Below the pieces are notes generated by a model. The model saw only the letters and a program-made list of their open reading frames with translations. It ran no database searches and was not told where the DNA came from. This document shows, piece by piece, positions 8,458 through 53,520 of a stretch of DNA of 64,000 bases; the stretch's first letter is position 1; the number at the start of each line of letters is the position of its first letter. Origin of the DNA: a virus; the IMG/VR virus record IMGVR_UViG_3300013947_000002, positions 32,001-96,000 of that record, one strand, 5' to 3'. Made by a program: the position numbers and the translations under genes.

Positions 8458-9113
8458 TTCGCTCCACAATTCTCCTTATCACCTCTTTCCTGCGACTGAA
8501 TAAACTTGCAAAATTCCTCCATTAGTCCATTGTCTGCAATCCACTCAATCTTTGTCTTATGTTCAGCAACCGCCTTAGTGTTGATATTATAACCAAGTTG
8601 CTTACTGAACCCAATATACATATCGCGCCAAGCATTGTCGGCGTTGTGCTTGTTCATATTATTAGCTCGGATGATATCTCGCATCAGCCTATAGCAATAA
8701 GCGCGGTCGAATTTGACTGGACACGTCTCTTTGAACACACCACTACTGTCAATGTATCGACCATACTTACGAATTGACGGTAAGACCTCATGTGTGACCC
8801 AGCGTCTGAATTTGCGCAACTCGGCTTCGCGCCTTGCAATGTCTTCTTTAGCTGCTCCACGAACCATCTTTGGCTTCATTATGAACAACGCCTGATAAAG
8901 ACCCGGTTCATTGACAGTCAACACCTTCTGCTTTCCGCCAAGGGTGTTCACAATGCGAATACCCTTTTCATCGTCATCGAGCCGATTTGCGATGTGGCTG
9001 ACGTTCTTAACATACAAAATATCGCAAATATCCTTTAGTACAAACCAGACCTCACCATCAACTTCTGCGACTCTCACGCCTTGTGTAGTATATTCAAATT
9101 CCTTAAATTCCAT
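8454..9113 (-). CDS. Bro-N domain antirepressor-like protein
   Basis: N-terminus FEYTTQGVRVAEVDGEVWFVLKDICDILYVKNVSHIANRLDDDEKG...NEPGLYQALF is the typical Bro-N signature. Confidence 0.85.
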   Translation of the reverse strand: MEFKEFEYTTQGVRVAEVDGEVWFVLKDICDILYVKNVSHIANRLDDDEKGIRIVNTLGGKQKVLTVNEPGLYQALFIMKPKMVRGAAKEDIARREAELRKFRRWVTHEVLPSIRKYGRYIDSSGVFKETCPVKFDRAYCYRLMRDIIRANNMNKHNADNAWRDMYIGFSKQLGYNINTKAVAEHKTKIEWIADNGLMEEFCKFIQSQERGDKENCGAK

Positions 9114-9200
9114 ATTTTTATTAGCCTCCTTGAGCTTAATGCCATTATATCATAATATAACTTGATATTTGTCAAGTAATAATTTCGGTCTAAAATTTAT

Positions 9201-9220
9201 CCCCCTATAACCCCCTATAA
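9201..9220. repeat. tandem 10-mer CCCCCTATAA x2, with an inverted near-copy at 9409-9418
   Basis: Direct reading. ttgtaggggg at 9409-9418 is the reverse complement with 1 mismatch. Confidence 0.8.
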
Positions 9221-9309
9221 GGTATAATTAAATACTAACGTATTTAATTATTTACTATATTATATCACAAATTTTTCTATTTGTCAATAGCAAAAATAAA
9301 AAATTTTCT

Positions 9310-9338
9310 CTTGACATTGTATTGCTTCTATGATATAT
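9310..9338 (+). promoter_or_regulatory. sigma70-type promoter (upstream of two tandem rightward promoters)
   Basis: TTGACA 9310-9315, 17 nt spacer, TATATT 9333-9338. Followed by the palindromes atattacta-gta-tagtaatat and ACAGTATATACTGT. Confidence 0.5.
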
Positions 9339-9459
9339 TACTAGTATAGTAATATATAAGTATTAACAGTATATACTGTAATAATAATTATTTTTTATAG
9401 AAAAGGGGTTGTAGGGGGAAAACCGTCAAATTGTAAACGAATTGTAAATGAAATTGTTC

Positions 9460-9488
9460 TTGACAAGTTGCGCGACATATGCTATAAT
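9460..9488 (+). promoter_or_regulatory. sigma70-type promoter of the rightward gene block
   Basis: TTGACA 9460-9465, 17 nt spacer, TATAAT 9483-9488. Confidence 0.7.
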
Positions 9489-9509
9489 CTTGCCATGAGG
9501 TGAAAAACA

Positions 9510-9722
9510 ATGCCACGAACAAAGAAAATTAACCCGCGCGTCCAATATGGCGACACTAGCTGGATTGTCAATGATTGCGGCAATGGGCAATTCGAGCTGT
9601 ATAATACCAGCACCAAACAAATTCCAGCAAAGAGTAATAATCCACTGGATTTTGATAAATATATTGACAAAATTTTTGGTAAGGAGGCGGCTAAGAATGT
9701 TCGAGATTTTCAAGCTGAATAA
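9510..9722 (+). CDS. hypothetical protein (70 aa)
   Basis: First ORF after the promoter, with SD gaggtg upstream of the ATG. Confidence 0.5.
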   Translation: MPRTKKINPRVQYGDTSWIVNDCGNGQFELYNTSTKQIPAKSNNPLDFDKYIDKIFGKEAAKNVRDFQAE

Positions 9723-10858: not shown

Positions 10859-11371
10859 ATGACAAGAAAAGAAAAGATTGATATTCTTGAATGGTATTGT
10901 GACCATTGCGGCGATACTTGTGATGGATGCCCGTTTAATACTGTCGAGAACTATGGATGTGACTTTTCAGAAATGAATGACACAAAACTAGACAAGTTGT
11001 GTAAACACCTGAATGACGCAGACCAAGCCGCTTATGAAAACGCTGTTAATGAGTATTGTCACACAGAACCAGATGATCTTGAACTCCATATCGACCCAAA
11101 GGCGGCTCGCCACTATGCTATCTGCCAAAAACTCAATGCGGTATATAAGGCTAAGAATCATGATTATGGGGATTCATTTGGTGATACGTTCAAAAAGCTC
11201 GGCATTATCAGCGCAGTGACTCGCCTGAGCGATAAAATGAACCGACTTATGTCACTTGCTGTGGCACACGATGCCCAGGTAAAAGATGAAAAGATTGAGG
11301 ATACGCTACTTGACATGGCTAATTATGCAATTATGACGCTGATTGAATTGGGATATGAGGTAGATGAATAA
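10859..11371 (+). CDS. DUF1599/MazG-like nucleotide pyrophosphohydrolase-like protein
   Basis: Start at ATG 10859 behind ggagg. YKAKNHDYGDSFGDTFKKLG...RLSDKMNRL resembles the KxxDYG DUF1599 core. Confidence 0.5.
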   Translation: MTRKEKIDILEWYCDHCGDTCDGCPFNTVENYGCDFSEMNDTKLDKLCKHLNDADQAAYENAVNEYCHTEPDDLELHIDPKAARHYAICQKLNAVYKAKNHDYGDSFGDTFKKLGIISAVTRLSDKMNRLMSLAVAHDAQVKDEKIEDTLLDMANYAIMTLIELGYEVDE

Positions 11372-11619
11372 TGGCTGATTGTATTGATCGTGATGCACTG
11401 ATTGATAATTTGCAGAAATTCGCGTCAAACAGTTATGACGCTTATGTGAACAATATCATCATGGGTATGCCTAGAGCCAATGTTAAAAAAATTGTAACGG
11501 CACATTGGTTTTTTGGTGACGATGGTGTGTTCATTTGTAGCAAATGTGGCAATGCAGAGTCTAGCAATGGTCGTTACTGTTCGTATTGTGGTGCTGAAAT
11601 GAGCGAGGTTGCAGAATGA
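11371..11619 (+). CDS. hypothetical protein, C-terminal zinc ribbon
   Basis: CSKCGN...CSYCG. The N-terminus MADCIDRDALIDNL is paralogous to 12615..12929. Confidence 0.5.
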   Translation: MADCIDRDALIDNLQKFASNSYDAYVNNIIMGMPRANVKKIVTAHWFFGDDGVFICSKCGNAESSNGRYCSYCGAEMSEVAE

Positions 11620-11789
11620 GTGTATATATCAAACTTGAGGATGCGGTTGAAGCATTTAAGAAAGCCGAAGCAGATGACATTGAGAGGTTTGGTTATCATA
11701 TCGTTGACTGCTTTCCATCGGACAGAGCCATTGAAATCATCTGTAAATGTCATAGGTATTTGAGTAAAGACTACGAGGTTACAGAATGA
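11616..11789 (+). CDS. small hypothetical protein (57 aa)
   Basis: Own translation MSVYIKLEDAVEAFKKAEADDIERFG... with ATGA overlaps at both ends. Confidence 0.4.
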   Translation: MSVYIKLEDAVEAFKKAEADDIERFGYHIVDCFPSDRAIEIICKCHRYLSKDYEVTE

Positions 11790-11968
11790 CTAATCGTGAA
11801 TGGTTTGAGTTGAATTACTCGGAAGATAATAGGTTGGATTATATAAATAGTAAATGTCCACCCAGCACTGGTGGATATCCCAATTGTTCACATTTAATTG
11901 ATGATGTAACCTGTGATATTTGTTGGGAACAATGGCTCAGAGAGGAATACAATGAACCAGAGAACTAG
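11786..11968 (+). CDS. hypothetical protein (60 aa)
   Basis: Track ORF coupled to its neighbours. Confidence 0.4.
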   Translation: MTNREWFELNYSEDNRLDYINSKCPPSTGGYPNCSHLIDDVTCDICWEQWLREEYNEPEN

Positions 11969-12368
11969 GCGCGGCATTGAATCGGCGCGTCGAGCTAGCT
12001 ATGAATCTGCTTTTCCTCGCTATCATCTTGGAGCGGCGTTGTATTATAAGGGTGTATTGCTTGCTACTGGTTGCAACAGTACCAAAACAAGCCCATTGCA
12101 AAAGCGGCTCAATGCAGAGCGCGATTTCAACCCAGACCAGAGTGGCGTGGTCAATTCGCTCCATGCGGAAATTAGAGCATTGAGCAAAGTAAAATATCTG
12201 GATATTGATTTTGATAAAACCACGCTTTATATTTACAGAGAATATGCAAATGGCAATAAAGCAATGGCGCGACCATGCCCAGCCTGTATGCGATATATTA
12301 AAGAGCTGGGTATTAAGAATATATGCTATAGTACGGCCGATGGAATTGCCGAAGAAAGGATTGATTGA
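11952..12368 (+). CDS. dCMP/cytidine deaminase
   Basis: HAEIRAL and PCPACMRYI zinc-binding motifs. Start at ATG 11952. Confidence 0.85.
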   Translation: MNQRTRRGIESARRASYESAFPRYHLGAALYYKGVLLATGCNSTKTSPLQKRLNAERDFNPDQSGVVNSLHAEIRALSKVKYLDIDFDKTTLYIYREYANGNKAMARPCPACMRYIKELGIKNICYSTADGIAEERID

Positions 12369-12622
12369 TAATGCAACCGATTGACCTAGATTCTGAATAT
12401 ATCAAAGAAACCCTATATCGCACCGGCTTTAAGTCGAGAAAAGATATTGAGGATTGGTTGAATGCTGCGCCAGTTGTTGATGCTGTACCGGTTGTTAGAT
12501 GTAAGGATTGCATCTATTTTGGCGTGAATGATGAAAATGTACCATATTGCTTTAACAGGTTTGGACTTGATGACCTTGAGCTAAATGGATATTGTAATTA
12601 TGGGAGGGTAAATAATGGCTGA
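12365..12622 (+). CDS. hypothetical protein (VVRCKDCIYF family)
   Basis: Track ORF; paralogous motif shared with 12615..12929. Confidence 0.45.
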   Translation: MIMQPIDLDSEYIKETLYRTGFKSRKDIEDWLNAAPVVDAVPVVRCKDCIYFGVNDENVPYCFNRFGLDDLELNGYCNYGRVNNG

Positions 12623-12929
12623 TTATATCCGGCGCGAGGATCTGATGGCCGCACGGGAACAAGCGATTCGTGTGTATGAAAATGCAAATATTTTCAATGC
12701 CGCCGCAATCCGAGAAGATTTAAGACCGCTTCTGGATGCTGTTGTCGACGTACCCGCTGCAAATATTACAGAGATTATCCATTGTAAAGATTGTGCCTAT
12801 TTTCATCCATATCCATTTGAGCCCGAGTATGGCAGTTGCAAATATCATCTTGACCCCGACTTACAATGGGAAGAAAAGAAAGAAACGGACTACTGTAGTG
12901 ATGCAGAGAGGTTAGAAGATGAAGATTGA
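12615..12929 (+). CDS. hypothetical protein (IHCKDCAYF family)
   Basis: Track ORF; paralogous motif shared with its neighbours. Confidence 0.45.
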   Translation: MADYIRREDLMAAREQAIRVYENANIFNAAAIREDLRPLLDAVVDVPAANITEIIHCKDCAYFHPYPFEPEYGSCKYHLDPDLQWEEKKETDYCSDAERLEDED

Positions 12930-13419
12930 AAGAATCTGGGCAATGCCGAACAAATGGACTTTTAGTATTAAGCCAATTGCACAGTTGCTTAGAGATGAAA
13001 TTGGCGATGGTCTATGGGTCGACCCGTTTGCTGGCGAAATGTCTCCGGCTCAAATTACAAACGACCTGAACCCAGAACGGCCAACAACATACCATATGGA
13101 CGCGCTTGATTTTCTAAAGATGTTTGACGGTAATTCCATAGACGGGATTCTATATGATCCGCCATATTCCCCAAGGCAGGTTAAGGAATGCTATGATGGT
13201 ATTGGTGGCGAGTTGAAATGGGATGGCCGGACAAACTTTTGGAGCGATACAAAGAACGAATGTGCGCGTATTCTAAAGTTAAACGGTAAGATTATTTGTT
13301 TTGGTTGGAACAGCATGGGGCTTGGAAAAAATCGCGGCTTTGAGATGACAAGGATTTTGCTTGTACCTCATGGTGGGAGTCGTAATGATACAATCTGTAC
13401 AGTTGAGGTTAAGTGTTAA
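12919..13419 (+). CDS. small orphan DNA methyltransferase (N6A/N4C type)
   Basis: VDPFAGE (AdoMet loop) followed by ILYDPPYS (DPPY catalytic motif). Confidence 0.7.
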   Translation: MKIERIWAMPNKWTFSIKPIAQLLRDEIGDGLWVDPFAGEMSPAQITNDLNPERPTTYHMDALDFLKMFDGNSIDGILYDPPYSPRQVKECYDGIGGELKWDGRTNFWSDTKNECARILKLNGKIICFGWNSMGLGKNRGFEMTRILLVPHGGSRNDTICTVEVKC

Positions 13420-13546
13420 TGTGGACAAAATTCAAACGATGGCTAATTCGAAAGCTGGGCGGCTTTGCTGATGGATATAGGGTGCCTGATGAATGTAAGG
13501 AGAAGGTAAAGAAAGTGATTGAGAAATGAAAGGAGAGTAAAGATAA

Positions 13547-13810
13547 ATGAAACGGATTGCAATTATCATCAGCATGATTTTTTGTGTATTGCTTGGTGCT
13601 TGTAGCGTCACTATGGTAAATGCAGAACAAAACAGACCGGTTAAAATTTGGGCTGAAAATAGCAATGGATCTTACGATGTTTGTATTGTCGTAGATGAAA
13701 CTACTGGCGTGAATTATATTGTTGTTGGCGGAGATATGTATCAACGCCCAAGAGGAACTGCAATCACTCCTAGACTAAACGAGGATGGTACGCTATATGT
13801 TAGTAAATGA
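13547..13810 (+). CDS. putative lipoprotein
   Basis: Signal peptide MKRIAIIISMIFCVLLGAC with lipobox LGAC. Confidence 0.6.
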   Translation: MKRIAIIISMIFCVLLGACSVTMVNAEQNRPVKIWAENSNGSYDVCIVVDETTGVNYIVVGGDMYQRPRGTAITPRLNEDGTLYVSK

Positions 13811-14006
13811 TAAAATTATTACATCGGTATGTGATGGTTGCTTAAATTGGCACATCTGCAAATTTAGCGACGATGTGAAGCGCGCCGAGATTGAGTACAG
13901 AAAGATGCAGGAGGGCGCAAATTGGCCTGAATGTGTAGAAACGACGCTAGGATGTAAGCATAAGCAATGTGTAAGTAACCAGTGGTTGTATGACATCGGT
14001 AGATAG
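13797..14006 (+). CDS. hypothetical protein
   Basis: Track ORF 13785..14006, taken from its internal ATG. Confidence 0.4.
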   Translation: MLVNDKIITSVCDGCLNWHICKFSDDVKRAEIEYRKMQEGANWPECVETTLGCKHKQCVSNQWLYDIGR

Positions 14007-14121
14007 CACAACGACAAAAGCTGAATATATGCCGTCTGATTATACAAAATACGTTAATTATGATGATGACGATATTCATGATATTTTAGACGGATATAGT
14101 AAGGCTCGTTATAAATAAAAT

Positions 14122-14177
14122 AAAAAATCTGCCCCAAAACCCTATATATGTAGGGAATGAAATGGGGCAGATTTTTA
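14122..14177. terminator. bidirectional intrinsic terminator
   Basis: A-run, then atctgcccca ... tggggcagat (10 bp), then a T-run. Inner hairpin ccctatatatgtaggg. Sits between convergent genes. Confidence 0.75.
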
Positions 14178-15218
14178 TTGCTTATTGCGCTCATTTTTAA
14201 TCAGGTCTTTGAGTTTATCTGGTTGCGCAGGATTCATGTTAATATCAACGAACTCGCGCCGCTCTTTGCCAGTGATACAACTGAGCTGACTGGTCTGAAT
14301 AATCTTAACACAAGCCTCTTTATTGATTTTTTCAAAGCTAGGATAATGCTCATAGACATCTAAGAGCCGGTTGGCAATCCATTCTTTAGTGGCTGGCTTA
14401 ATGACATACACCTCTTTCACAAGGTCGTATTTGCCGCCAAACGCCTCTTTGGTCAGTTCGCCAAGTCGCGCCTCAAATTTATTATATAGCTCTTGACTGA
14501 CATATGGCTTATATACCTTGTTGTCAACAACTTTGCCCCAATTTGGTGGCATAATCTCAGAAACAGCCTTGGAATGAATGGCTAGGCACGTCTGATGGTC
14601 TACGCTGTCTTCAGGCACGTCATGGGTGGCCATATACTCCTCACCGTTTTTATTGGTTTTGAGTTTATAGAGCCGGTAACCGCGATTTAGGTCGATGACG
14701 TAACGGTTCTTCATAGTCAGCAATTTGCGCCTAGTCCATTGAGCAAGGATATTGTATACTATACCATTGACTATGCCCATGTATCCATAACGCTCTGAAT
14801 CTGAGACGGCTTGACTGTAGGTATAATTAAAATTATCATTGACCTCTTGGAACATCCTGAGCAGATTGCTGGTCGAAGCATAAATGGTGGCACAGTTAGT
14901 CTTGAGGAAGATCTGGTAAAGGGCGGCTTCAAATGCGGCCTGATACGAGTCTTTGTCTAGCTCATTGATAAGAGAATCAGCCTCTGGATAGACTTCTTGG
15001 ACAATATAGCGGGTCGGATATGAATTAGGCACAATATCAAGTTGGCAATAGTTGCGAATTTTATCAAGTTGATAGGAGCGAGAATTTCCGTTTTTTGGTG
15101 GAATATCAACTGCAGCACATAACTCTGAATATTTTAATTCGCGCCCTTCTATACCGACTAGAGCGTCAATTAGTTTATTATCTTCATTGGACGGCAGATA
15201 TTTTGATTTGTTTGGCAT
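14175..15218 (-). CDS. hypothetical protein (347 aa), the only reverse-oriented gene in the plus block
   Basis: Start at ATG 15218 behind aaaggaaa. No motif recognised. Lies beside the DnaA-box/AT-rich region. Confidence 0.6.
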   Translation of the reverse strand: MPNKSKYLPSNEDNKLIDALVGIEGRELKYSELCAAVDIPPKNGNSRSYQLDKIRNYCQLDIVPNSYPTRYIVQEVYPEADSLINELDKDSYQAAFEAALYQIFLKTNCATIYASTSNLLRMFQEVNDNFNYTYSQAVSDSERYGYMGIVNGIVYNILAQWTRRKLLTMKNRYVIDLNRGYRLYKLKTNKNGEEYMATHDVPEDSVDHQTCLAIHSKAVSEIMPPNWGKVVDNKVYKPYVSQELYNKFEARLGELTKEAFGGKYDLVKEVYVIKPATKEWIANRLLDVYEHYPSFEKINKEACVKIIQTSQLSCITGKERREFVDINMNPAQPDKLKDLIKNERNKQ

Positions 15219-15618
15219 ATTATTTCCTTTCTGTAACAATTTTGTAATGTTGGGACGTTCGTGGGTCTCCACTGGGACTTTGCGTGACGCTTTTATAGAA
15301 ATACTATATTAGTATCAGCGAACGTCCCAGTCCGCCCCATTATCTAATTATACTATATTTTGATTGGCTATTTGTTAATAAATTGTAAATTATGTCATAG
15401 ATTATTGGATTTACCGATTAAGTAAAATAGCAATCGTTATAAGGTGTGTGGTTTGATTTATTTTTTTTATCATGCTTTACAGGGTATGTGATTTGTAGTG
15501 CTACATACCATTTTCATCCATTTTTACCAGTTTCATCCATATCCCAGCCCCCGTCCTGGAAAATGCTGGCATCTTGAAAAACACCTGAAAATAGCACTTT
15601 GCAGGCGTATCGGCGAAG

Positions 15619-15647
15619 TTGTCCACTTTTCCACAGGTTTATCCACA
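15619..15647 (+). promoter_or_regulatory. three tandem DnaA-box-like 9-mers
   Basis: TTGTCCACT (15619-27), TTTTCCACA (15627-35) and TTATCCACA (15639-47, perfect consensus), all in the same orientation. Confidence 0.6.
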
Positions 15648-16433
15648 AGTTGCCAAGTGGTAACTCAAAAATCCAGATTCTGGTATCAAAATCGATATCC
15701 AAAATTTTGATATATAACGCGTGTTATATTACACGGATCGCATTTTTAGTAAACACAATTCACCTATTTACTCCAAGTAAATACCTATTACCATCATATA
15801 AATAATTATTATATCCACGTCAATAAACATTTACTTAAAATAAACATATACTATATCCTGCAATATAACCTAATATACCGCACTAGATGTTATACTATTG
15901 TAACTATTGTAATAAGTATATCATATCACTATTTTTATCAATACAATATATCGATAAAAAGTTAGTATAGTCAATATCGATATAAATATACTGATTGATA
16001 ACAAGAATCATTCTCATATGTATAATAATACAGTATATACATAGCATACTCATAGTCAATAGCGCACATTCTAACTTTTTTATAGTATAATGGCCGCCTT
16101 TACCTATAAAACAGTGAATATTGTAACTGTATAAAAACTGTATAACGGAATAAAAAGATCAGGCATATAAAAACACGCCTGCACATAAAAACGGCATCAC
16201 AGGACTATTATAGCTTTTTGTCCAGTCCAGCTATCATATACTATATAAATAAGAGATAGCCGTTAGTCAATTTATACAATTCAAACGCTTGTAATTTGTG
16301 CAAAATGTACTATTGACTTTTGCAGCGTTCTGGTATATCATATCGCAGCAGTGACGCGGGGAAGGCCGGCGAAATATCCGGCAAACCGCTAAAATAAACA
16401 AAACAATCACTTAAAAATTTTACAATATGCCGA

Positions 16434-16462
16434 TTGACAAAAAGAAATTTATCGGATATACT
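16434..16462 (+). promoter_or_regulatory. sigma70-type promoter of the G+C-richer gene island
   Basis: TTGACA 16434-39, 17 nt spacer, TATACT 16457-62. Confidence 0.6.
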
Positions 16463-16510: not shown

Positions 16511-16903
16511 ATGAAAATCACTGTAAAATCTTTTGAGCCGCAAGAAAACATGAACGCTTACATCAGGGACCAGGAAGCAAAGCATCTTTGCAAGGGATTC
16601 AAGGCTATAGCAATCGACGGGGAAAAACTGGTAGAACTGGTAGATTTGAGAATCGGTGCAACCGCATCAACTGCATATGCTTGCGTATGGTTCAAAGGCG
16701 CGGATAAGTGGGCATACGGTTCTGGCAAGGCTTCCGGCTATGGATACGATAAGGGGAGCGCCGCTGTTGAATCAGCCTTCCGTGCTGCTGGCATGGTAAC
16801 TTCTGGTTTCGGCGGTACTGGATGCAATCGAGAGGCTGTGCAAGCTGCCGGGGAATATCTGTCAAACGAAAAGCCCGTGTTCGTCGTAGAATTTTACGGA
16901 TAA
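16511..16903 (+). CDS. hypothetical protein (130 aa)
   Basis: SD aggagg 8 nt upstream. Gly/Ala-rich; no motif recognised. Confidence 0.6.
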   Translation: MKITVKSFEPQENMNAYIRDQEAKHLCKGFKAIAIDGEKLVELVDLRIGATASTAYACVWFKGADKWAYGSGKASGYGYDKGSAAVESAFRAAGMVTSGFGGTGCNREAVQAAGEYLSNEKPVFVVEFYG

Positions 16904-27256: not shown

Positions 27257-27285
27257 TTGACAAATCGCCGCTGTGGTGCTATACT
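27257..27285 (+). promoter_or_regulatory. sigma70-type promoter
   Basis: TTGACA 27257-62, 17 nt spacer, TATACT 27280-85. Confidence 0.65.
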
Positions 27286-27314
27286 TAAACCATCAAATAA
27301 AGGAGCTGAATGAT

Positions 27315-28151
27315 ATGAACGAACTATTTATTATGTCGCTTAAAGCAAAGCATCGTAGTGAGGGTACCATTCGCGAATATACCAAGGCGATCGAGAACTG
27401 CTTGTCGTATGTCAAGAAGCCTGAAACCGACATCAAGCCGATTGACCTTGAGTTGTGGCAGTCCAGCATGAGCAATCTTAGCTCTGCATCCGTAGCACAG
27501 CGCACATCGGCTGTTCGCGAGTATTTCAAGTTCTTGTATCGCAATGAATTTATCAGTCGCAATCCTGCTGATATGCTTGAAGCGCCGAGTATCAAGAATC
27601 GTGAGCAGTCGGCTCTTGATGGAGAGCAGGTCAGAGCGATGATTAACGCCGCAACAAATCTGCGTAACAAGGCGATTATTACGATGCTGGCTCAGACCGG
27701 TCTTCGCATCCATGAGCTTGCCAATATCACGCTTGAGCAGTATCAGAGCCGCAATGGTAATGTGTTGGTCATTCGTGGTAAGGGTGATAAGGATAGGCTG
27801 GTTGGCCTGGCTGATGAGACGATCAAGCTGATTGATAGCTATATTGCTAATGAGCGCAAAGACGGCTGCGAATACCTGTTCGTCGGCAATCGCGGCAATA
27901 AGATGGACGGCAAGAACACCAGTGCTATGCTCAAGGTGTGCGCTAAGAAGGCTGGTATTGAGAATTGGGAGGAGTTGCATATCAGCAATCATACGATGCG
28001 CCGCACGTTTGCTACGATGATGTCCGAAGCCGACGTACCTATTGAGATAATTAGTAAGGCAATGGGGCACTCAGGTTTGGCTATCACGTCCAGATACATC
28101 AAGCGCACCGAGCAGAGAGCGGTCAATGCTATGGCTGTTATGAGTTTTTAA
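27315..28151 (+). CDS. tyrosine recombinase/integrase (XerC/XerD-like)
   Basis: ATG 27315 behind aggag. GLRIHEL (Arg), HTMRRTFAT (HxxR), GHSGLAITSRYI (His...Tyr). Confidence 0.85.
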   Translation: MNELFIMSLKAKHRSEGTIREYTKAIENCLSYVKKPETDIKPIDLELWQSSMSNLSSASVAQRTSAVREYFKFLYRNEFISRNPADMLEAPSIKNREQSALDGEQVRAMINAATNLRNKAIITMLAQTGLRIHELANITLEQYQSRNGNVLVIRGKGDKDRLVGLADETIKLIDSYIANERKDGCEYLFVGNRGNKMDGKNTSAMLKVCAKKAGIENWEELHISNHTMRRTFATMMSEADVPIEIISKAMGHSGLAITSRYIKRTEQRAVNAMAVMSF

Positions 28152-32997: not shown

Positions 32998-33318
32998 ATG
33001 GAATACAATATTGGGGATATTATCAAGCTCAAGAATGATGCTGGTGTATTTAAGGTTGAAATTAAGAGAAAAATGGAAACAAATCAAGCCATTCAAGGAT
33101 ATGACGATGATTGCAGGTTTGATGGCGAGATGCGGCTCGAGGTGCATCATAGGGATTATGGTGAATATATCATCACTATGACGAGCCGTGAAGAATCTAA
33201 CGACACTGGTAGAATTATTGTATGCTGGCTTAATACTTGTAACGACGAGGTTGAATATTATCTTGGGCAGATTATTCAGTACGAAGAAAAAGAAGACGTG
33301 TTCGAGCTGATGAAGTGA
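32998..33318 (+). CDS. hypothetical protein
   Basis: Track ORF with SD aaggagg. Confidence 0.5.
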   Translation: MEYNIGDIIKLKNDAGVFKVEIKRKMETNQAIQGYDDDCRFDGEMRLEVHHRDYGEYIITMTSREESNDTGRIIVCWLNTCNDEVEYYLGQIIQYEEKEDVFELMK

Positions 33319-36300
33319 TGAGTAAGAATTATACGATTCTTCACCTTCATTCCATGCTGTCTAACGGTGTAACTAATATTGATTCAGTCACACGGTACGA
33401 CCAATATATAAATCGTGCCGCAGAGCTTGGCATGAAGGCTATTGCGTTCAGTGAACATGGGTCTGTTTTTCAGTGGGTTAGGAAAAAATTGTACGCCGAA
33501 GAAATGGGCTTAAAATTTATTGCAGCTGAAGAATTTTATCTAACTCAAACCCTATCAGAAAAAATTCGCGACAACTATCACTGTCTGCTTATCGCCAAGA
33601 ATTATGATGGCGTACTAGAGCTAAACAAGTTATCAACTAAATCATTCAATCGTGATGATAATTCATTCTACTATGTTCCGCGAATCACGATTGATGATGT
33701 GAAAAATACAAGCGACAATATTATCGTAAGCACGGCTTGCTTGGGCGGCGTTCTTAATAAAGCGCCAGATGATGTCAGATGGGATTTTTATCATTGGTTA
33801 TGTGAGCATAAAGATCGCTGTTTCCTTGAGATTCAGCCCCATCTTGACCCGGCTCAAAAGAGCTACAATAACACGCTATGGGCGCTATCCAAACAGAGCG
33901 GATTGCGGTTGTTAATGTGTACTGACACCCATGCGCTCAATTCTACCCATGTAGATGGGCGGCGCATTTTGCAGAAAGCCAAGAATATTCACTTTGATGG
34001 CGAAGACCGGTTTCACCTTGAGATGATGAACTACGATGAACTAGTTCAGCTATGCCGTATGCAAGATGTGCTTCCCATGGATGTGTATCTGGACGCTATC
34101 GAGATGACCAATACTGTGGCTGATATGGTTGAGCCGTTCGAGCTTGATTATAGCTATAAATATCCTCATCTATGGGGCGATGATAGCGAGGCTGTGCTTA
34201 GAGCTAAGATAGCAGATGGCATTAAATGGCGCGGCGTTGATAAACTATCTAATTATCAAGAATACCTAGACCGCATTGAATATGAAATGAAGGCGTACAT
34301 TCATAACGGCGCCATTGACTTTATGCTGCTCATGGAAGATATTGTTACTTGGTGTAGAACGCAAGATATTCAGATTGGATATGGGCGCGGCTCTTGCACC
34401 GGCAGTTTGATTGCTTACCTGCTTGGCATTACTGAGATGGATAGCATTAAGCATAAGCTTAATTTCGATCGCTTCATGAATGTCGAGCGCGTATCATTGT
34501 CTGATATCGACTCGGATATACCGCCTAACAGAATTGATGAAGTAAAGAATTATGTATTTAACAAGCATGGGTTGTATTGTGCCGATATTGTTACATTTAA
34601 TACCATTGCTCTAAAGGGTGCTATTCGGGATGTTGGTAGGGCACTTGAAATGTCGCTTGATGAGGTGGGCGATATTTGCAATAAGGTTGAACAAGACGAG
34701 GCCGGATGCCGCGCCAAATACCCAGAGCTATTTAAGTATGTAGATATTGTTAATGGTTGTGTTGTATCGGTTGGCAACCATCCATCAGGAATGATTGTTG
34801 CGCCGCATAGCATTGATGACTGCATGGGGTTATTTACTACAACAACCGATACCGTGCCAATCAGCCAAATCAATATGAAAGAGGTTGACTTGCAGAATTA
34901 TGTAAAGCTCGACTTGTTAAAGCTGATTACGATACAGATTATCAATGAGACGTGTAAGATGTGTGGAATTGAGCGCTTAACACCTGATAATATTGATGTT
35001 GCAGACAACGCCGTGTGGCGTTCTATCAGAGATGATACGACAGCAATATTTCAGTGGGAATCAGGCAGCGCAAGGCAGTATATAGCCAAGTTGCTATCAG
35101 ATACAACCATTGCCAAGTTGCGCAAGGTTCAGCCAGATATCGACTATATCACATTGCTGTCTATGGGCAATGGTGCGATTCGTCCTGCTGGTGCATCATA
35201 CCGCGATGAGCTTGCCAATGGCGATGTTCGCACATATGACAATGAGGCTATTAACCATTTCATGTCTGATACGTTCGGCTTTCTTATCTTCCAATGCCAG
35301 ATTATCGGATTTTTGCATAAATACTGCGGTTATACTATGGGCGAGGCCGATGTGGTGCGCCGCCATTTCGCCAAGAAGACGGGTACAGATAAGGATATAC
35401 CGCAAATTAAGGCTGGATTCGCTAAGACAATGGCTGAGCAATACGGCATGAGCCAAGAGCAATCTGATAAAACCATAGCGGATTTTATTCAGGTCATTGA
35501 GGATGCCAGCAATTACTTGTTCTCTCTCAACCATAGTCAGCCATATAGCTATGAGGGCTATGCAGAGGGATGGCTTAGATATTATTATCCGTTTCAGTTC
35601 TTGACAGTGTGCCTAAATGTCAATCAGGGCGACAATTCTGAGACATCGGCTCTGACCGCCTATGCTCATAAGATGGGCATTAAAATCAAGTCGCCGCGAT
35701 TCCGTCATTCTCGCTCGGATTATTTTTGCGATACTGCTGAAAATGTAATCTATAAGGGGCTTGGCTCAATTAAGTATATGAGCGCAGATGTGGCTGAAGC
35801 TCTGTATGGTATGCGCGATATGCAGTTTAAGAATTTTATTGATGTGCTGTTTGCCATCCAGCAGCTTGAATCAAAGCCTGATTCGCGCCAACTTGATATT
35901 CTAGTCAAGATCGGCTATTTTGACGAATTTGGCCCACCCAAAGCGCTATTGATTGGCATTGAGATTTTTAATAAATTTTCAAAATGCAAGACAATTAAAC
36001 TTGACAAATGGCGCGAAATAGGGTATAATGTAGATATGCTTGCGCCCTATGCCGGTAAGATGACGGATAAGACGGCGAGCCAGCTTGATAATCGTGGTAT
36101 TGTACTGGCCATCCTACGTTCAATGGAAATGCCAAAAACAACGATTATTGATAGGCTAAAATGGCAATCTGAGCTACTTGGCTATGTTGATACTTGTGAC
36201 CCTAAATCGCCCATTACAGATTGGCTTGTGCTTGATGTTAAGACAACTGGTTATGGCACGGTATATTGCCGCCTGTATAATATCAGCATTGGCATTGAGC

Positions 36301-36470
36301 GTGAAATGCGGGCGAATCGGCAATTTTGGGCTAAGAACAAATTAGAGCGTGGAGACGCAATTAGAGCTGTGACGCAAGAGAAAAATAAGATGAAAAAGGA
36401 TGAAAATGGTGAATGGGTGAGAACTAGTGAGGTTTACACCGAATTGAAATGCTGGTCTAGGATTGATTAA
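33315..36470 (+). CDS. dnaE: DNA polymerase III alpha subunit (PHP + PolIIIA core)
   Basis: ILHLHSMLSNGVTNIDS (PHP), GYGRGSCTGSLIAYLLGIT, SDIDSDIPPNR. 1051 aa. Confidence 0.9.
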   Translation: MMSKNYTILHLHSMLSNGVTNIDSVTRYDQYINRAAELGMKAIAFSEHGSVFQWVRKKLYAEEMGLKFIAAEEFYLTQTLSEKIRDNYHCLLIAKNYDGVLELNKLSTKSFNRDDNSFYYVPRITIDDVKNTSDNIIVSTACLGGVLNKAPDDVRWDFYHWLCEHKDRCFLEIQPHLDPAQKSYNNTLWALSKQSGLRLLMCTDTHALNSTHVDGRRILQKAKNIHFDGEDRFHLEMMNYDELVQLCRMQDVLPMDVYLDAIEMTNTVADMVEPFELDYSYKYPHLWGDDSEAVLRAKIADGIKWRGVDKLSNYQEYLDRIEYEMKAYIHNGAIDFMLLMEDIVTWCRTQDIQIGYGRGSCTGSLIAYLLGITEMDSIKHKLNFDRFMNVERVSLSDIDSDIPPNRIDEVKNYVFNKHGLYCADIVTFNTIALKGAIRDVGRALEMSLDEVGDICNKVEQDEAGCRAKYPELFKYVDIVNGCVVSVGNHPSGMIVAPHSIDDCMGLFTTTTDTVPISQINMKEVDLQNYVKLDLLKLITIQIINETCKMCGIERLTPDNIDVADNAVWRSIRDDTTAIFQWESGSARQYIAKLLSDTTIAKLRKVQPDIDYITLLSMGNGAIRPAGASYRDELANGDVRTYDNEAINHFMSDTFGFLIFQCQIIGFLHKYCGYTMGEADVVRRHFAKKTGTDKDIPQIKAGFAKTMAEQYGMSQEQSDKTIADFIQVIEDASNYLFSLNHSQPYSYEGYAEGWLRYYYPFQFLTVCLNVNQGDNSETSALTAYAHKMGIKIKSPRFRHSRSDYFCDTAENVIYKGLGSIKYMSADVAEALYGMRDMQFKNFIDVLFAIQQLESKPDSRQLDILVKIGYFDEFGPPKALLIGIEIFNKFSKCKTIKLDKWREIGYNVDMLAPYAGKMTDKTASQLDNRGIVLAILRSMEMPKTTIIDRLKWQSELLGYVDTCDPKSPITDWLVLDVKTTGYGTVYCRLYNISIGIEREMRANRQFWAKNKLERGDAIRAVTQEKNKMKKDENGEWVRTSEVYTELKCWSRID
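36001..36029 (+). promoter_or_regulatory. perfect consensus promoter inside the dnaE coding sequence
   Basis: TTGACA 36001-06, 17 nt spacer, TATAAT 36024-29. Confidence 0.45.
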
Positions 36471-41571: not shown

Positions 41572-43047
41572 TTGATATATGATGCAAATTCAGCACGTCT
41601 TTTATTAGGTTGTTTGCTAATCAAGCCCTCGCTTGCCATCTCCGATAAATACCCCCTGTCTAAAGCCGATTTTGAGCCAACGCCGTTCCATCTCCGTCTT
41701 TGGCAAGCGTGTGTAGCTCTTGCTCGTCGTGGAGCTGAGTCCATATCGAGCCTAGACATCTATATGCTATGTAAGAACAATAAGCAAGTAGAGGGTATAT
41801 TCAAGGCAAATCAACTTGACGATTTTATTGATACGGTCAAGCAACTTGCCAATGTCGGCAACTTTGACGTATATTACGCAAATGTGCGCCGGTGCACGTT
41901 GATTAGAGCGTATAAGGCGGCTGGGTACAATGTAGACAAATTTGAGCAAGATGACCAAGCATCCATTGAAGATATTGTACAGTGGTTTGACGCACAACAG
42001 ATAGCTATTAAAAAGACGTTCTATAAAGATAAGGATATTGACGAACTAAAGGCTGGTGATGGCTTTGAGGCGGTCAAAGAGGGCTTCAAATCAGAGCCGC
42101 TATTTGGCGCTACTACATTCAGCGAATATCTGAACACAGCGGCTAGAGGCTGGATTCCGGGACAGTTGTCAATCTATTCAGTCGGCTCAGGTATAGGTAA
42201 GTCAACTATCGGCTTGGCTAATCTTGTGCAAGTATGCTGTCCTAGAATCTATGATATAGACAAAGAGCAATATGTAGACAACCCATGCTATCAACATAAG
42301 GCCGGTCTGTATCTCCAATTTGAGATGGCTGGTGATACTGAAGTCACGCCTAAAATCGTGGCTACAATTAGCGGCGTACCATGCTTTAGCATTTTGAATG
42401 GCCGCTATGAAGAGGGCGAAGAAGAACGGGTAGACGAAGCGATTAAGATTCTGCATGAATCTAATCTGTATATCGTCACTATGCCTAATTATACGGTTGA
42501 CCTGATTGAATCATATGTCAAGGATTATGTGGTAAACCGAGGGGTCGGCTATTTGTGCTACGATTATATAGTCGAGTCAGCCTCAGTATCGAGCGATATT
42601 GCCAAAAAGAACGGTGTGGCTACACGGTCAGATCAGGTCTTATCAGGTATTGCAAGCAAGCTCAAGGATTTAGCCGTTGAATATAATATTGCCGTCCTTA
42701 CATTTACTCAAGTTAATGCCAATGCTATGACGCAAGAAATTATGGATAGTGGTGTTGCGGCTGGTTCTAGGGCGATTCAGAACAAGGCTGATATTGCTGG
42801 TGTTATTATGCCACTGCGCCATAAAGAACAGGACATAGCCGACATGGTGGCTGAAAAATATCCCGATAGAGTCAAGCCGAATCGTGTATTATCTGTCTAC
42901 AAAATGCGGTTCTCATCGGTTGAACAAGGCATCAAGATTTATTTTTATCTCGATTTGAATACAGGTAGAACTAAGGATTGTTTTATAACAACAAAATTTG
43001 ACCAGCTATATTCGCTCAGTAAGACAAGGTTGGTGTATGCTAAATAA
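41572..43047 (+). CDS. dnaB: DnaB-like replicative helicase
   Basis: N-terminus ARLLLGCLLIKPSL. Walker A YSVGSGIGKSTIG. RecA-like C-terminal domain. TTG start. Confidence 0.8.
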   Translation: MIYDANSARLLLGCLLIKPSLAISDKYPLSKADFEPTPFHLRLWQACVALARRGAESISSLDIYMLCKNNKQVEGIFKANQLDDFIDTVKQLANVGNFDVYYANVRRCTLIRAYKAAGYNVDKFEQDDQASIEDIVQWFDAQQIAIKKTFYKDKDIDELKAGDGFEAVKEGFKSEPLFGATTFSEYLNTAARGWIPGQLSIYSVGSGIGKSTIGLANLVQVCCPRIYDIDKEQYVDNPCYQHKAGLYLQFEMAGDTEVTPKIVATISGVPCFSILNGRYEEGEEERVDEAIKILHESNLYIVTMPNYTVDLIESYVKDYVVNRGVGYLCYDYIVESASVSSDIAKKNGVATRSDQVLSGIASKLKDLAVEYNIAVLTFTQVNANAMTQEIMDSGVAAGSRAIQNKADIAGVIMPLRHKEQDIADMVAEKYPDRVKPNRVLSVYKMRFSSVEQGIKIYFYLDLNTGRTKDCFITTKFDQLYSLSKTRLVYAK

Positions 43048-43729: not shown

Positions 43730-44056
43730 ATGATTCATATAAAAGTAAATGAGGAGCGCGAACAGGTGAATGTCCCGTATGCGCCTCCTCACTCATATGT
43801 TAAAAGCACAGAAACAATCTTGTCGTTCGATACTAAAGATGATTATGACAATTTTGTGGTAGAATCCCATGATAATGCAGATGGCTCTAAATATCTAAAG
43901 CTCGGTATCAATCTATATAAAGAGCCGGTTCGCTTGTGCCCTGCAATCACACACTATCTCAATGTTCAAACGTCTGATAATAAATCAGATGAGGAGCTAA
44001 TTCTTATTGGTACACAATATATTGAATTTGAAAAGATATATTTGAATCATGATTGA
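43730..44056 (+). CDS. hypothetical protein
   Basis: Track ORF with SD gagga. Confidence 0.5.
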   Translation: MIHIKVNEEREQVNVPYAPPHSYVKSTETILSFDTKDDYDNFVVESHDNADGSKYLKLGINLYKEPVRLCPAITHYLNVQTSDNKSDEELILIGTQYIEFEKIYLNHD

Positions 44057-45098
44057 TATTGCCTCTCTCAAATCCCAATTAACCGAAGACCGCATTATTG
44101 AGTTGCTTGATGCTCTAGGTGCTCCGTTGATGAAAGCGGATAGTAACAACCTTGTATTCCCGTCTATCTGCCACCAGAGCGACCCATTAGCCCATTCCGC
44201 TAAGCTCTGGCTATACCTCGACTCCATGCAATACAAGTGCTGGAGTTGTGGCTTTTCAGGTGATACCATATCTCTAGTTCAGCACGTCAAACATCTTGAC
44301 TTCAATCAAGCGATTACCTATATTTGCTCAACTCTAAATCTGCAAGTCGGTCAAATAGAGCAAAATGAGCAACTTGATAATTGGTCTGAATTGCGCCGAT
44401 TCTTACCAGATGCTGAGCCAGAGCCAGATAAGTTGGTTACATATGACCCAGCCGTCTTATCCCTATTTGACCACTTATACCCGCAAGATTGGCTAGATTA
44501 TGGGATAACGAAAGATATACTTGATAAATTCGGCGTAGGTTGGTATGCACGGCAAGCGTGTATTTCCATACCTGTAGTGTTTAATGGGCAACTGGTAGGT
44601 GTAAGGGGGAGATATACAAAAGAACAGGATGTAGCTAAAGGCAAGTATAGACCGATATGTACGCTTGATGGACAGGTGTTTAAATTCCCAAGCGGTGCTT
44701 GCTTTTATGGCTATGACCAGAATAGAGCAGCTATTGAAAAGTCGCGCCAAGTAGTGTTATTTGAATCAGAAAAAAGTGTGCTAAAGTCGCCCCAATATGG
44801 CATAGATAATGCTCTAGCCGTTTTTGGCTCTAATATTAGTAAGCGACATATTCAGCTATTGCTTGAGTTGGGTGTAAATGAGGTGGCGCTTGGCTTCGAC
44901 TCGGATTACCATATAGTGGGCGATGATGAATTTAGATTCTTTGCGACTAAGATGAAGAAGCTGGCGGCTAAGTTGCGTAGTTATTTTAACGTCTCGATTA
45001 TATATAACAATCAAGGCTATGATATGTATAAATGCAATATGATGGATATATCATATGAGCAAGCAATGAAGTTATGGGAAAGTAGGGTGAAAATTTAA
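44049..45098 (+). CDS. DnaG-like DNA primase (zinc finger + Toprim)
   Basis: CHQSD...CWSCGFSGD (CHC2). LFESEKSVLK and GFDSD (Toprim E and DxD). Confidence 0.8.
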   Translation: MIDIASLKSQLTEDRIIELLDALGAPLMKADSNNLVFPSICHQSDPLAHSAKLWLYLDSMQYKCWSCGFSGDTISLVQHVKHLDFNQAITYICSTLNLQVGQIEQNEQLDNWSELRRFLPDAEPEPDKLVTYDPAVLSLFDHLYPQDWLDYGITKDILDKFGVGWYARQACISIPVVFNGQLVGVRGRYTKEQDVAKGKYRPICTLDGQVFKFPSGACFYGYDQNRAAIEKSRQVVLFESEKSVLKSPQYGIDNALAVFGSNISKRHIQLLLELGVNEVALGFDSDYHIVGDDEFRFFATKMKKLAAKLRSYFNVSIIYNNQGYDMYKCNMMDISYEQAMKLWESRVKI

Positions 45099-51351: not shown

Positions 51352-53520
51352 ATGCCAAAAGCAAAACTACTCCCACAGCGATTCTTATACCGTGACACCA
51401 AGACCGATTTTGCCATCCTGTCATGTAAGCTGGTTAATCCTGTTGCCGGTATAGAGACGCACCCTGTATATCACAACCTAACATTGAAAGGTGCGAATAT
51501 AGCCAACTTTGAGCTGAATCGCCGCATTGACTGTATCATCGAGCCAATCATTGATGAGAAGCATCCATACAGCTATAAATTTATCAGCTTTGGCTCGTTT
51601 GAGGCAAAAGGCGGCAAATTCAAGTTGACAGAGAAACAGGAGTTACAGGCTCTACGCAGCTTGATGACGAATAGACAGGCTGAATCATGCCATGCCGCCT
51701 ACCCTCACTTTGTCAGTATGGTGCTAAATGGCGAACAAGAACAAATCGACCCAAGCAAAATCAAGTATGTGAAGAACGTGCTGTTAAACCGTTATATCGC
51801 CAAAATCAAGTCAATCAATAACCGCATCGCATTTATGGAAGAAGCGGCTAAATGGTCTATTGAATCCGATGAGAACCTGAATAAGATTGCGGCGCGATAC
51901 GGCAATATTGACGAGTTCAAAGAGGACATTGAACAGAACCCATACAACGTGCTTATGGACGTGTTGGATTGGGGCTGGACAAGGGCTGATAAGGCGGTAA
52001 TGAAATATGCGCCATCTCTTGCTTGTTCATTAAATAGAGCCGAAGCCGCCTGTATCTATCTACTCAAGCGAAATGAGGATGATGGCAACACGCGAATCGG
52101 CGCATCTGAGCTATTTGACCAGTTTGTGTCTCTATGCCCCGAATCGGTTAGTTATATCTATGAGGCAGTCACTACATCGTCTAAAATTTACTATGAGCCA
52201 GAGCGCAAGTATGTAAGCCGCAAATCGACCTATATGGCGGAATGCCATGTAGCTGAGGTCGTGAAGAAAAAAATAGCCAATCCACATTATTATCCTATGA
52301 ATTGGCAGAAGTTTACAAGCGTAGACGGATTAGATCTGACAGATGAACAATCACAGATTCTTGAGATGGCTTGTAAACAGGACGTAATGATGTTGACGGG
52401 GAGTGCCGGTTCTGGTAAGAGTCAGACACTCAAGGCCATTATTGAGATGCTTGAAGCTAACAACTATGGCTATACACTGCTAGCTCCAACAGGAATCGCC
52501 GCAAAGAGGATGCGTGAGGCAACAAGTCGTGAAGCCAGCACCATTCATATGTTCTTGCTGAGTGAAGCGATGGCGGGCGATTATGTGTTGATTGACGAAT
52601 CTGGCATGGTTGCAGTTGACCTGCTATCCGCTCTATTCAATAAGCTCAATGACAATACCAAACTCATCTTTATTGCAGACCCATCTCAACTTGCTTCTAT
52701 CTCATGTGGCAATGTTGTGCGCGATCTGCTTGATGGCGGCATCGTGCCTGTATGTAACTTAACCAAGGTGTTCAGATACAACACGTCTGGTATCATAACC
52801 ATTGCTACTGATGTACGAAATGGTGATAGTAGCCATCTGACAGATACTTTCACGGATTATAAGTTTGTTGAAATTGATACATTACCAATCAAGCAAATTG
52901 AGCGAGAATATGCGGCGCTGTTGGCTAGTGGCTATGGGCAGGATGATATATTGATTCTGTCGCCATTCAATAAGGGGCAATGCGGCTCATTGGTTATCAA
53001 CAATTATATCCAAGATAAATTTAACCCAAATCCACCTACAGATGTTGGCTGGACGATGAATGGTGTAGAAGTCAAGTTCCGTGTTGGTGATAAGGTCATC
53101 AATAAAAAGAATGAATATCGTATGCCGCTTGCCGATAGAGATGATACGGCGTTTGTAGCTAATGGCGACATGGGGCGCATCGTGGATATTGAGCCTGATG
53201 ATAAAATGCCACAGATGGTCGTGCATTTTGATTGCGGTGATTGCCTGGTTGATAAGGCGCATATCAGTAGAATGTTGCTAGGATATTGTATCAGCACACA
53301 TAGCAGCCAGGGCTGTCAAGCAAAGGCGGTGATTGTGGTGGTAGATAGAAGCCATATGCGGCTTATTTCGCGTAACCTGCTATACACTGGGGTGTCAAGG
53401 GCGCAAGAGCGGCTAGTAGTAATTGGCGATATGGAGGCGATTGAGGCAGGACTAAATGTGCAGGAAGAAAAATGTAGGAATACGTGGTTGAGAGAGGTGT
53501 TAAAGGATGGCGTTGATTAA
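51352..53520 (+). CDS. RecD-like SF1 helicase
   Basis: MLTGSAGSGKSQTL (Walker A), VLIDESGMV (Walker B). C-terminus ISTHSSQGCQAKAV...LLYTGVSRAQ. Confidence 0.8.
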   Translation: MPKAKLLPQRFLYRDTKTDFAILSCKLVNPVAGIETHPVYHNLTLKGANIANFELNRRIDCIIEPIIDEKHPYSYKFISFGSFEAKGGKFKLTEKQELQALRSLMTNRQAESCHAAYPHFVSMVLNGEQEQIDPSKIKYVKNVLLNRYIAKIKSINNRIAFMEEAAKWSIESDENLNKIAARYGNIDEFKEDIEQNPYNVLMDVLDWGWTRADKAVMKYAPSLACSLNRAEAACIYLLKRNEDDGNTRIGASELFDQFVSLCPESVSYIYEAVTTSSKIYYEPERKYVSRKSTYMAECHVAEVVKKKIANPHYYPMNWQKFTSVDGLDLTDEQSQILEMACKQDVMMLTGSAGSGKSQTLKAIIEMLEANNYGYTLLAPTGIAAKRMREATSREASTIHMFLLSEAMAGDYVLIDESGMVAVDLLSALFNKLNDNTKLIFIADPSQLASISCGNVVRDLLDGGIVPVCNLTKVFRYNTSGIITIATDVRNGDSSHLTDTFTDYKFVEIDTLPIKQIEREYAALLASGYGQDDILILSPFNKGQCGSLVINNYIQDKFNPNPPTDVGWTMNGVEVKFRVGDKVINKKNEYRMPLADRDDTAFVANGDMGRIVDIEPDDKMPQMVVHFDCGDCLVDKAHISRMLLGYCISTHSSQGCQAKAVIVVVDRSHMRLISRNLLYTGVSRAQERLVVIGDMEAIEAGLNVQEEKCRNTWLREVLKDGVD

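Follow-up and report, generated by a model that had tools for sequence, protein, structure and literature searches.

A DnaA-box cluster carried as one allele of an exchangeable cassette in a conserved non-coding region of gut siphoviruses

Results and Discussion

The DnaA-box-like sequences described here lie in a 34-bp cassette that is exchanged among closely related phages, and they are best explained as an optional input from the host DnaA protein to a phage control region, where they may assist the opening of an origin, regulate a promoter, or both; we put the probability of this reading at roughly one half. The cassette is dimorphic within a single phage species, a comparable box cluster recurs in a distant lineage, and the neighboring gene encodes a protein whose predicted recognition helix co-varies with three putative operator sites. 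That DnaA binds the boxes, and with what effect, we infer from the sequence. The proposed picture is that of a conserved modular non-coding region upstream of a self-regulated winged-helix gene, in which a 34-bp slot is exchanged by recombination. Host DnaA would most likely bind the boxes as an optional input and not as the essential initiator. Once bound, it could act to either side: in the 3' direction it could help to open the AT-richest DNA of the genome, and in the 5' direction it could affect an invariant extended -10-like element directed towards the antisense gene.

Genome and replication genes

The window, i.e., the whole stretch of 64,000 nucleotides that was analyzed, comprises bases 32001-96000 of an IMG/VR record of 98,280 bp. 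The record ends in a 78-bp terminal repeat, which we take to be an overlap left by the assembly of a circular or permuted genome. Ribosome-binding sites and promoters in the window have a Firmicute-like look, and the following genes serve for orientation:

27273-28151, integrase-family gene
33315-36470, PolIII alpha
41572-43047, DnaB-like helicase
44049-45098, primase
51352-53520, RecD-like helicase

Besides DnaB, the replication module contains Sak4, an SSB-like protein, an HNH endonuclease, and methyltransferases; the replication genes are 18-29 kb distant from the box region. The first-pass annotation had recognized no initiator in this phage, and the searches bear it out. Six-frame profile searches of the whole genome for DnaA, DnaA domain IV, DnaD-like, lambda-O, Phage_rep_org_N, and DnaC/IstB returned no matches, and family scans of the replication module recognized neither an initiator nor a helicase loader. 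No tRNA was found.

The DnaA-box cluster

Three DnaA-box-like 9-mers in the same orientation had been described at 15619-15647, and all three are present on the plus strand, one of them perfect:

15619-15627, plus strand, box 1, TTGTCCACT, two mismatches to TTATCCACA
15627-15635, plus strand, box 2, TTTTCCACA, one mismatch to TTATCCACA
15639-15647, plus strand, box 3, TTATCCACA, perfect, zero mismatches

A gap of 3 bp lies between boxes 2 and 3, and box 1 abuts them, so that boxes 2 and 3 have the arrangement of an oriC-type origin, in which at least two tandem boxes lie no more than 3 bp apart. The additional core reported at about 15811 likewise exists and reads ATATCCACG, and the 64-kb window contains only one other perfect box. 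By the definition of three same-strand boxes within 30 bp with at most three mismatches in total, the 98,280-bp genome contains a single cluster, and none was encountered in 200 genomes simulated with a first-order Markov model; the cluster is non-random.

In bacterial oriC, the basal unwinding system (BUS) consists of tandem DnaA boxes, a short spacer, and DnaA-trios (PMC8287927, PMC6669920), with at least three trios (3'-NAN-5', consensus 3'-GAT-5') starting no more than 16 bp from a box (PMC8287927). On the box strand, a script scanning the 0-16 nt next to each box for a run of three trios (NTN x3) found none. The strand taken to carry the trios is that of the Bacillus subtilis origin.

An exchangeable 34-bp slot

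The boxes are part of a sequence element with sharp borders that sits directly after a conserved block (block B, 15477-15612) and of which this genome carries the DnaA-box allele:

15613-15646, unstranded, exchangeable 34-bp cassette ("slot"), delimited by pairwise alignment with the contig L001 and by dimorphism in 12 contigs

In L001, the closest relative (96.5% identical over 11056-16180), the pairwise alignment displays a clean substitution of 15613-15646 by a sequence of the same length, with all three boxes gone and the flanks essentially identical. Contigs from many samples, 24 in all, encode the exact protein of the neighboring antisense gene (P0001). The slot could be read in 12 contigs, i.e., the window, ten contigs in which the protein is identical, and L001 (99% protein identity). 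Five of them carry the DnaA-box allele (the window, L049, L055, L056, and L057), and seven carry an unrelated alternative 34-bp allele (L001, L048, and L050-L054), with both alleles seen in independent samples that encode the identical neighboring protein. L057 is a recombinant in which the left-flank variant of the alternative-allele group is paired with the DnaA allele, indicating that the cassette recombines on its own. Another 20 relatives have other cassettes at the slot, most of which are 16-22-bp palindromes and one of which is a direct repeat, and slot types combine freely with the operator types of the neighboring gene. The alternative allele in 7 of the 12 contigs and the other cassettes in 20 more relatives imply that the boxes are dispensable. 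Since they are missing from more than half of the conspecific genomes, they are not the essential initiator-binding site of a phage origin. A search for the source of the cassette gave no exact matches in viral, metagenome, and bacterial genome collections, from which close records of this genome may have been withheld.

Most slot alleles form stable hairpins, several of which are followed by T-runs, and the DnaA allele does not. Many relatives (among them L001, L002, L005, and L013) also have a small GC hairpin and TTATTTT right after block B, resembling a weak plus-strand terminator, and the left border of the DnaA-box allele ruins the 3' half of this small hairpin (15600-15625 of the window).

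Box clusters in relatives and distant lineages

The antisense gene has 21 IMG/VR relatives with 78-99% protein identity, and 20 of these are devoid of the three-box cluster. Among seven further lineages fetched, six are without a box cluster, and only the P0039 lineage (L045 and L046) has a comparable one. Conservation of the boxes in relatives, on which the first-pass annotation had staked its reading and which a BUS would lead one to expect, is thus largely missing, both in these lineages and in the 7 box-free conspecific contigs. Degenerate DnaA boxes show no general enrichment across the antisense-protein family, L045 excepted, and box signals in L043 and L016 were rejected as scattered AT-rich near-matches.

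L045 and L046, from two runs, represent a lineage with 32% identity in the neighboring protein. They have five same-orientation boxes within 72 bp, two of them perfect, two reading TTTTCCACA, and one reading CTTTCCACA. The boxes are found where a G-poor AT-rich tract begins, 545-616 nt upstream of the antisense gene:

L045:3540-3625 and L046:120-185, minus strand of the loci, box unit

Two of these boxes precede trios (CTA CTA TTA and ATA CTA CTA), after 4 and 0 nt, which fits the box-spacer-trio rule of the bacterial BUS (PMC8287927). The clusters in the window and in L045/L046, set against six cluster-free lineages, indicate that box clusters arose at least twice, sporadically and in the same orientation towards AT-rich DNA. 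Given this recurrence at an equivalent place, DnaA input still looks selected.

The setting of the boxes is more widely shared. A lone opposed antisense gene, preceded by 0.9-1.5 kb without credible genes, is kept in homologues of 58, 55, 39, 38, and 32% identity, and the control region, 1.2-1.5 kb in length and 1.3 kb in this phage, is always upstream of this lone gene.

Architecture of the non-coding region

Apart from the slot, the non-coding region contains the following elements:

15338-15393, unstranded, conserved block A, with a minus-strand TATAAT at 15347-15355 (TGGTATAAT in most relatives)
15381-15390, AATTGTAAAT motif within block A
15477-15612, unstranded, conserved block B, 135 nt, shared by all 21 IMG/VR relatives and ending in an invariant 24-mer right after which relatives diverge
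15673-15729, unstranded, series of three short palindromes able to form hairpins, separating the boxes from the AT-rich tract
15740-16150, unstranded, G-poor AT-richest tract, partly conserved (block C, 15896-16177), with ATCGAT-type palindromes
16160-16181, minus strand, terminator-like hairpin followed by a T-run, partly conserved in relatives
16313-16341, plus strand, rightward promoter-like site TTGACT-17-TATCAT, conserved in several relatives
16434-16462, plus strand, rightward promoter-like site TTGACA-17-TATACT (11 of 12), before the first small gene (16511-16903)

The boxes had been described as followed by very AT-rich DNA, full of palindromes and lacking a credible open reading frame. 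The base composition is as described, with 15751-16150 being the lowest-GC 400-bp stretch of the whole genome (25.0% GC), and the lack of a credible reading frame also holds, as relatives differ by numerous indels whose lengths are not divisible by three; the small open reading frames were rejected as coding on account of this pattern. The richness in palindromes persists only marginally after control for composition (stems of 6-8 bp: P = 0.35, 0.10, and 0.05). Conservation of block C is moderate. The AT-rich tract is on the side expected of a BUS unwinding element but starts about 90 bp from the boxes, past the three hairpins.

Block B contains an invariant GTGCTA (15498-15503) and TAGCAC (15592-15597) in inverted orientation, as well as two 16-nt direct repeats and a C-run (15548-15552). 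Its minus strand has an extended -10-like element, AGTGCTATTTT, which is invariant or nearly so in 20 relatives, and the boxes would occupy about -38 to -66 of the leftward start that it predicts near 15581. This element is without a -35 and is not recognizable in the lineages that are most distant. A consensus promoter elsewhere in the window, at 58570-58605 (TTGACA, 17 nt, TGTGCTATAAT), indicates by its combination of TGTGCTATAAT with a consensus -35 that the phage uses extended -10 elements of the TGTGCTA type. The local G/C skew flips at block B, the left side being G/T-rich and the right side C/A-rich and G-poor, and the same flip is visible by eye in distant lineages. A structured RNA in block B was rejected: RNAalifold gave no consensus structure on either strand, only the invariant 6-bp inverted repeat with 0 compensatory changes, the single-sequence fold z-scores were weak (-1.8 and -1.7), and Rfam had no match at the gathering or E-value threshold.

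The antisense gene and its putative operators

The gene that borders the region and its leader comprise:

14122-14177, unstranded, bidirectional terminator-like hairpin (A-run, stem TCTGCCCC / GGGGCAGA, T-run) at the 3' end of the antisense gene
14175-15218, minus strand, lone antisense gene P0001, 347 aa, with a predicted N-terminal winged helix and a conserved C-terminal domain
15251-15261, plus strand, putative operator copy a, TGGGACGTTCG, varying together with the P0001 recognition helix and the other two copies (b and c)
15271-15331, unstranded, long palindrome with AT-rich inner arms containing -10-like hexamers (TATAAT on both strands in relatives)
15273-15284, plus strand, putative operator copy b, TGGGACTTTGCG, outer left arm of the palindrome
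15319-15329, minus strand, putative operator copy c, inverted, outer right arm of the palindrome

P0001 has no matches in Pfam, PHROGs, NCBIfam, or PDB sequences. Its AlphaFold2 model (pLDDT 83) begins with an H-E-H-H-E-E winged helix, followed by an alpha/beta domain, and has no fold match in the PDB, so that none of these sequence and fold searches relates P0001 to a known Rep or initiator family. Matches in BFVD are uncharacterized gut siphovirus proteins only. The family comprises 466 representative clusters in metagenomes; its distant members match phrog_36702, which is of unknown function, and it touches no other PHROG. No relatives of P0001 turned up in 185,579 bacterial and archaeal genomes, and no prophage or host was found that way; cultured phages gave no nucleotide or protein match to P0001. 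The sole cultured-phage match to the family, hypothetical protein GP200 of Geobacillus virus E3 (L067, 139086-140201 of NC_029073.1), is a distant member with 29% identity to P0145 and is uninformative.

The outer arms of the long palindrome (about 10 nt) and the third, direct copy 22 nt nearer the gene vary between relatives and always match each other. The type of site tracks residues 41-50 of P0001, which form the predicted recognition helix. For example:

recognition helix NGNSRSY, site TGGGACGTT
recognition helix NGDSRSS, site TGGGCTAAT
recognition helix DGGSRAS, site TCGGACTTT
recognition helix SGNTKIS, site TTGTAC(A/T)TT
recognition helix GGCSK(V/I)T, site TTGTCTAAA

Five specificity types occur in close relatives and five in distant lineages, each with its own helix sequence (leaders L001-L066), so that the family has at least ten, and outside the recognition helix the P0001 sequences of close relatives are almost the same. 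A DNA-binding domain that co-varies with several operator copies at the promoter is what a repressor and its operators would display. The marks of a lysogeny repressor of the CI kind are absent, with no prophage relatives in the 185,579 genomes and no CI-like domain in the protein. The three operator copies are the only close matches of the P0001 site in the genome, and given this, together with the co-variation of the helix, the predicted target of P0001 is almost certainly its own promoter region. With two direct copies and one inverted copy around the -10-like hexamers, the arrangement would suit autoregulation of the kind seen in iteron replicons, and a search of the genome for the site revealed no iterons of P0001 in or beside the AT-rich tract. 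A protein other than DnaA could also recognize the boxes, as a similar TGTCCACTTTT string is the putative operator of the antisense protein in L042.

A competing site at 9.1-9.5 kb

The cumulative GC skew, which had been suggested as a check on the origin, goes against the box region, having its minimum at 9310, about 6 kb from the boxes; it counts weakly, being confounded by transcription direction and gene orientation. At 9.1-9.5 kb this minimum coincides with a divergence of gene orientation and a nearly equal AT content, the divergent intergenic region 9001-9400 (25.8% GC) coming close behind 15751-16150. Positions 9114-9546 are a candidate for an alternative origin or control region. A perfect palindrome with 12-bp arms and TATAAT at 9224-9251 is like the inner palindrome of the antisense-gene leader of relatives. 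Two direct CCCCCTA repeats are found at 9198-9217, with an inverted copy at 9409-9418. The AATTGTAAAT motif of block A recurs as tandem AATTGTAAA(C/T)G, two full copies and a third degenerate one, directly upstream of a consensus promoter at 9460-9488.

Alternative explanations

The first-pass annotation proposed a DnaA-dependent phage origin, and it stands in part. The boxes are non-random and point towards the AT-richest DNA, no initiator of the phage's own was recognized, and box clusters recur in L045/L046; what does not stand is a general requirement, with the boxes missing from 7 of 12 contigs and from most relatives, no DnaA-trios, and the skew minimum at 9310. In the strict form of an obligate, oriC-like origin this explanation is hardly tenable. 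Tandem boxes 3 bp apart upstream of AT-rich DNA in a phage with no initiator found are what it would predict, but all three boxes are absent from 7 of 12 conspecific contigs and the cluster is absent from 20 of 21 IMG/VR relatives and six of seven further lineages, no DnaA-trio occurs within 16 nt, and about 90 bp with three hairpins intervene between the boxes and the AT-rich tract. The dimorphism of the alleles essentially excludes it. As to an origin of any kind in the region, its extreme AT content, the conserved place by a putatively autoregulated gene, the lack of another initiator, the orientation of the boxes, and the L045 unit argue for it, and the lack of iterons, the lack of Rep homology, the remote replication genes, and the competitor at 9.1-9.5 kb argue against it. 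A possible, though on the whole doubtful, explanation is that the region is the phage origin, with the antisense winged-helix protein as its initiator and the DnaA boxes as accessories. The AT-richest DNA of the genome is here, the place beside a putatively autoregulated gene for a sequence-specific DNA-binding protein is conserved, the genome searches turned up no other initiator or loader, and the boxes face the AT-rich tract in two independent lineages, one of which (L045) has BUS-like trios. In addition, the N-terminal specificity domain of P0001 varies and its C-terminal domain is conserved, a pattern also found in lambdoid O proteins. Nevertheless, the only three sites of P0001 are those at its own promoter, with no iterons in or next to the AT-rich tract; P0001 resembles no Rep family in sequence or fold; the GC-skew minimum and the divergence of gene orientation map to 9.1-9.5 kb, which is almost as AT-rich; and the replication genes are 18-29 kb off. 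We regard as unlikely a related reading in which the region is a modular phage origin with an exchangeable "opener", i.e., DnaA in some alleles and lineages, such as the allele of the window and the complete box-plus-trio unit of L045, and palindromes for other factors elsewhere, and in which the winged-helix protein would be a new type of initiator or a regulator of the origin. If this were true, the coexistence of both alleles in a single species would perhaps be an adaptation to different host strains.

Two further explanations dispense with a role of DnaA at an origin or promoter. The slot and its neighbors may represent non-coding RNAs or their terminators, with the box allele acting as a cassette that removes a terminator and DnaA having no role. 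We find this improbable, even though most slot alleles are stable hairpins, several with T-runs, and the DnaA allele is not, even though the GC hairpin and TTATTTT after block B in many relatives are ruined by the left border of the DnaA allele, and even though in some lineages a downstream G-run could base-pair with the C-run of block B. Block B has neither a consensus structure nor compensatory changes on either strand, fold z-scores reach only -1.7 to -1.8, there is no Rfam match and no convincing plus-strand promoter upstream, and a near-perfect box array that arose twice in the same orientation would be left unexplained. Alternatively, the boxes could be a decoy that titrates host DnaA from a multicopy phage genome, in the manner of datA, and thereby shuts down host initiation with no effect in cis. 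Dispensable, polymorphic boxes and high-affinity consensus sequences within the cluster would suit such a decoy, but three boxes are a small sink, and a decoy gives no reason for the same slot and orientation in two lineages; we consider it very improbable. For the preferred reading of the boxes as an optional host-DnaA input, it should be noted that "optional" says nothing about which initiator serves genomes with the other allele, should this region be their only origin.

Comparison with known systems

The origins of iteron plasmids and prophage-plasmids (P1 oriR, F oriS, pSC101, and RK2 oriV) combine a Rep protein with DnaA boxes, and DnaA acts as a helper for which the requirement varies. 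The phage region resembles these four in having a few boxes by an AT-rich tract and a putatively autoregulated gene for a DNA-binding protein. It differs from them in that no iteron array is found in the AT-rich tract, known Rep families are unrelated to P0001, and the boxes belong to one allele of a cassette that is exchanged. With the bacterial oriC BUS it shares same-strand tandem boxes 3 bp apart facing AT-rich DNA, and in the relative L045 also CTA CTA TTA-type trios 0-4 nt after the boxes, whereas the window has no trio run within 16 nt, an AT-rich tract about 90 bp away, and boxes that are not conserved. DnaA also acts as a transcription factor, for instance in dnaA autoregulation and in the stimulation of lambda pR. 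Boxes at about -38 to -66 of an extended -10-like element are consistent with such a role, although the phage promoter is predicted from its sequence. Likewise, a variable DNA-binding domain that co-varies with three sites, the rest of the protein being conserved, recalls the CI/Cro-operator and O-iteron modules of lambdoid phages. P0001, in contrast, joins a winged-helix N-terminus to a C-terminal domain without a known fold match, its sites are asymmetric 9-12-mers (two direct and one inverted), and it has no prophage relatives in 185,579 bacterial genomes.

It is already known that plasmid and phage origins can contain DnaA boxes and that DnaA can act as a transcription factor. The new findings are that a phage species carries a DnaA-box array as an allele of a mini-cassette that recombines, that such an array has independently recurred in the same non-coding region in a distant lineage, and that an uncharacterized protein family has operator-protein specificity modules. 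DnaA boxes routinely serve for origin calls in phage genomes; as the statistically solid cluster described here is a dispensable allele swapped by recombination, such calls need comparison with relatives. Two alleles in otherwise identical phages, along with a distant lineage whose boxes are oriC-like, constitute a natural experiment that could test how phages without an initiator couple replication or early transcription to the initiator of the host. This work also defines, in a widespread group of gut siphoviruses, a large winged-helix family (the 466 clusters) with co-varying operator triplets, and a conserved long non-coding region adjoining the winged-helix genes.

Contig ends

Many contigs of relatives (L003, L006, L013, L001, and L054-L066), including near-complete ones of 95-98 kb, start or stop in the non-coding region. 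Fixed genome termini in the region were rejected because the contig ends are scattered; assembly breaks at strain-variable DNA explain them best.
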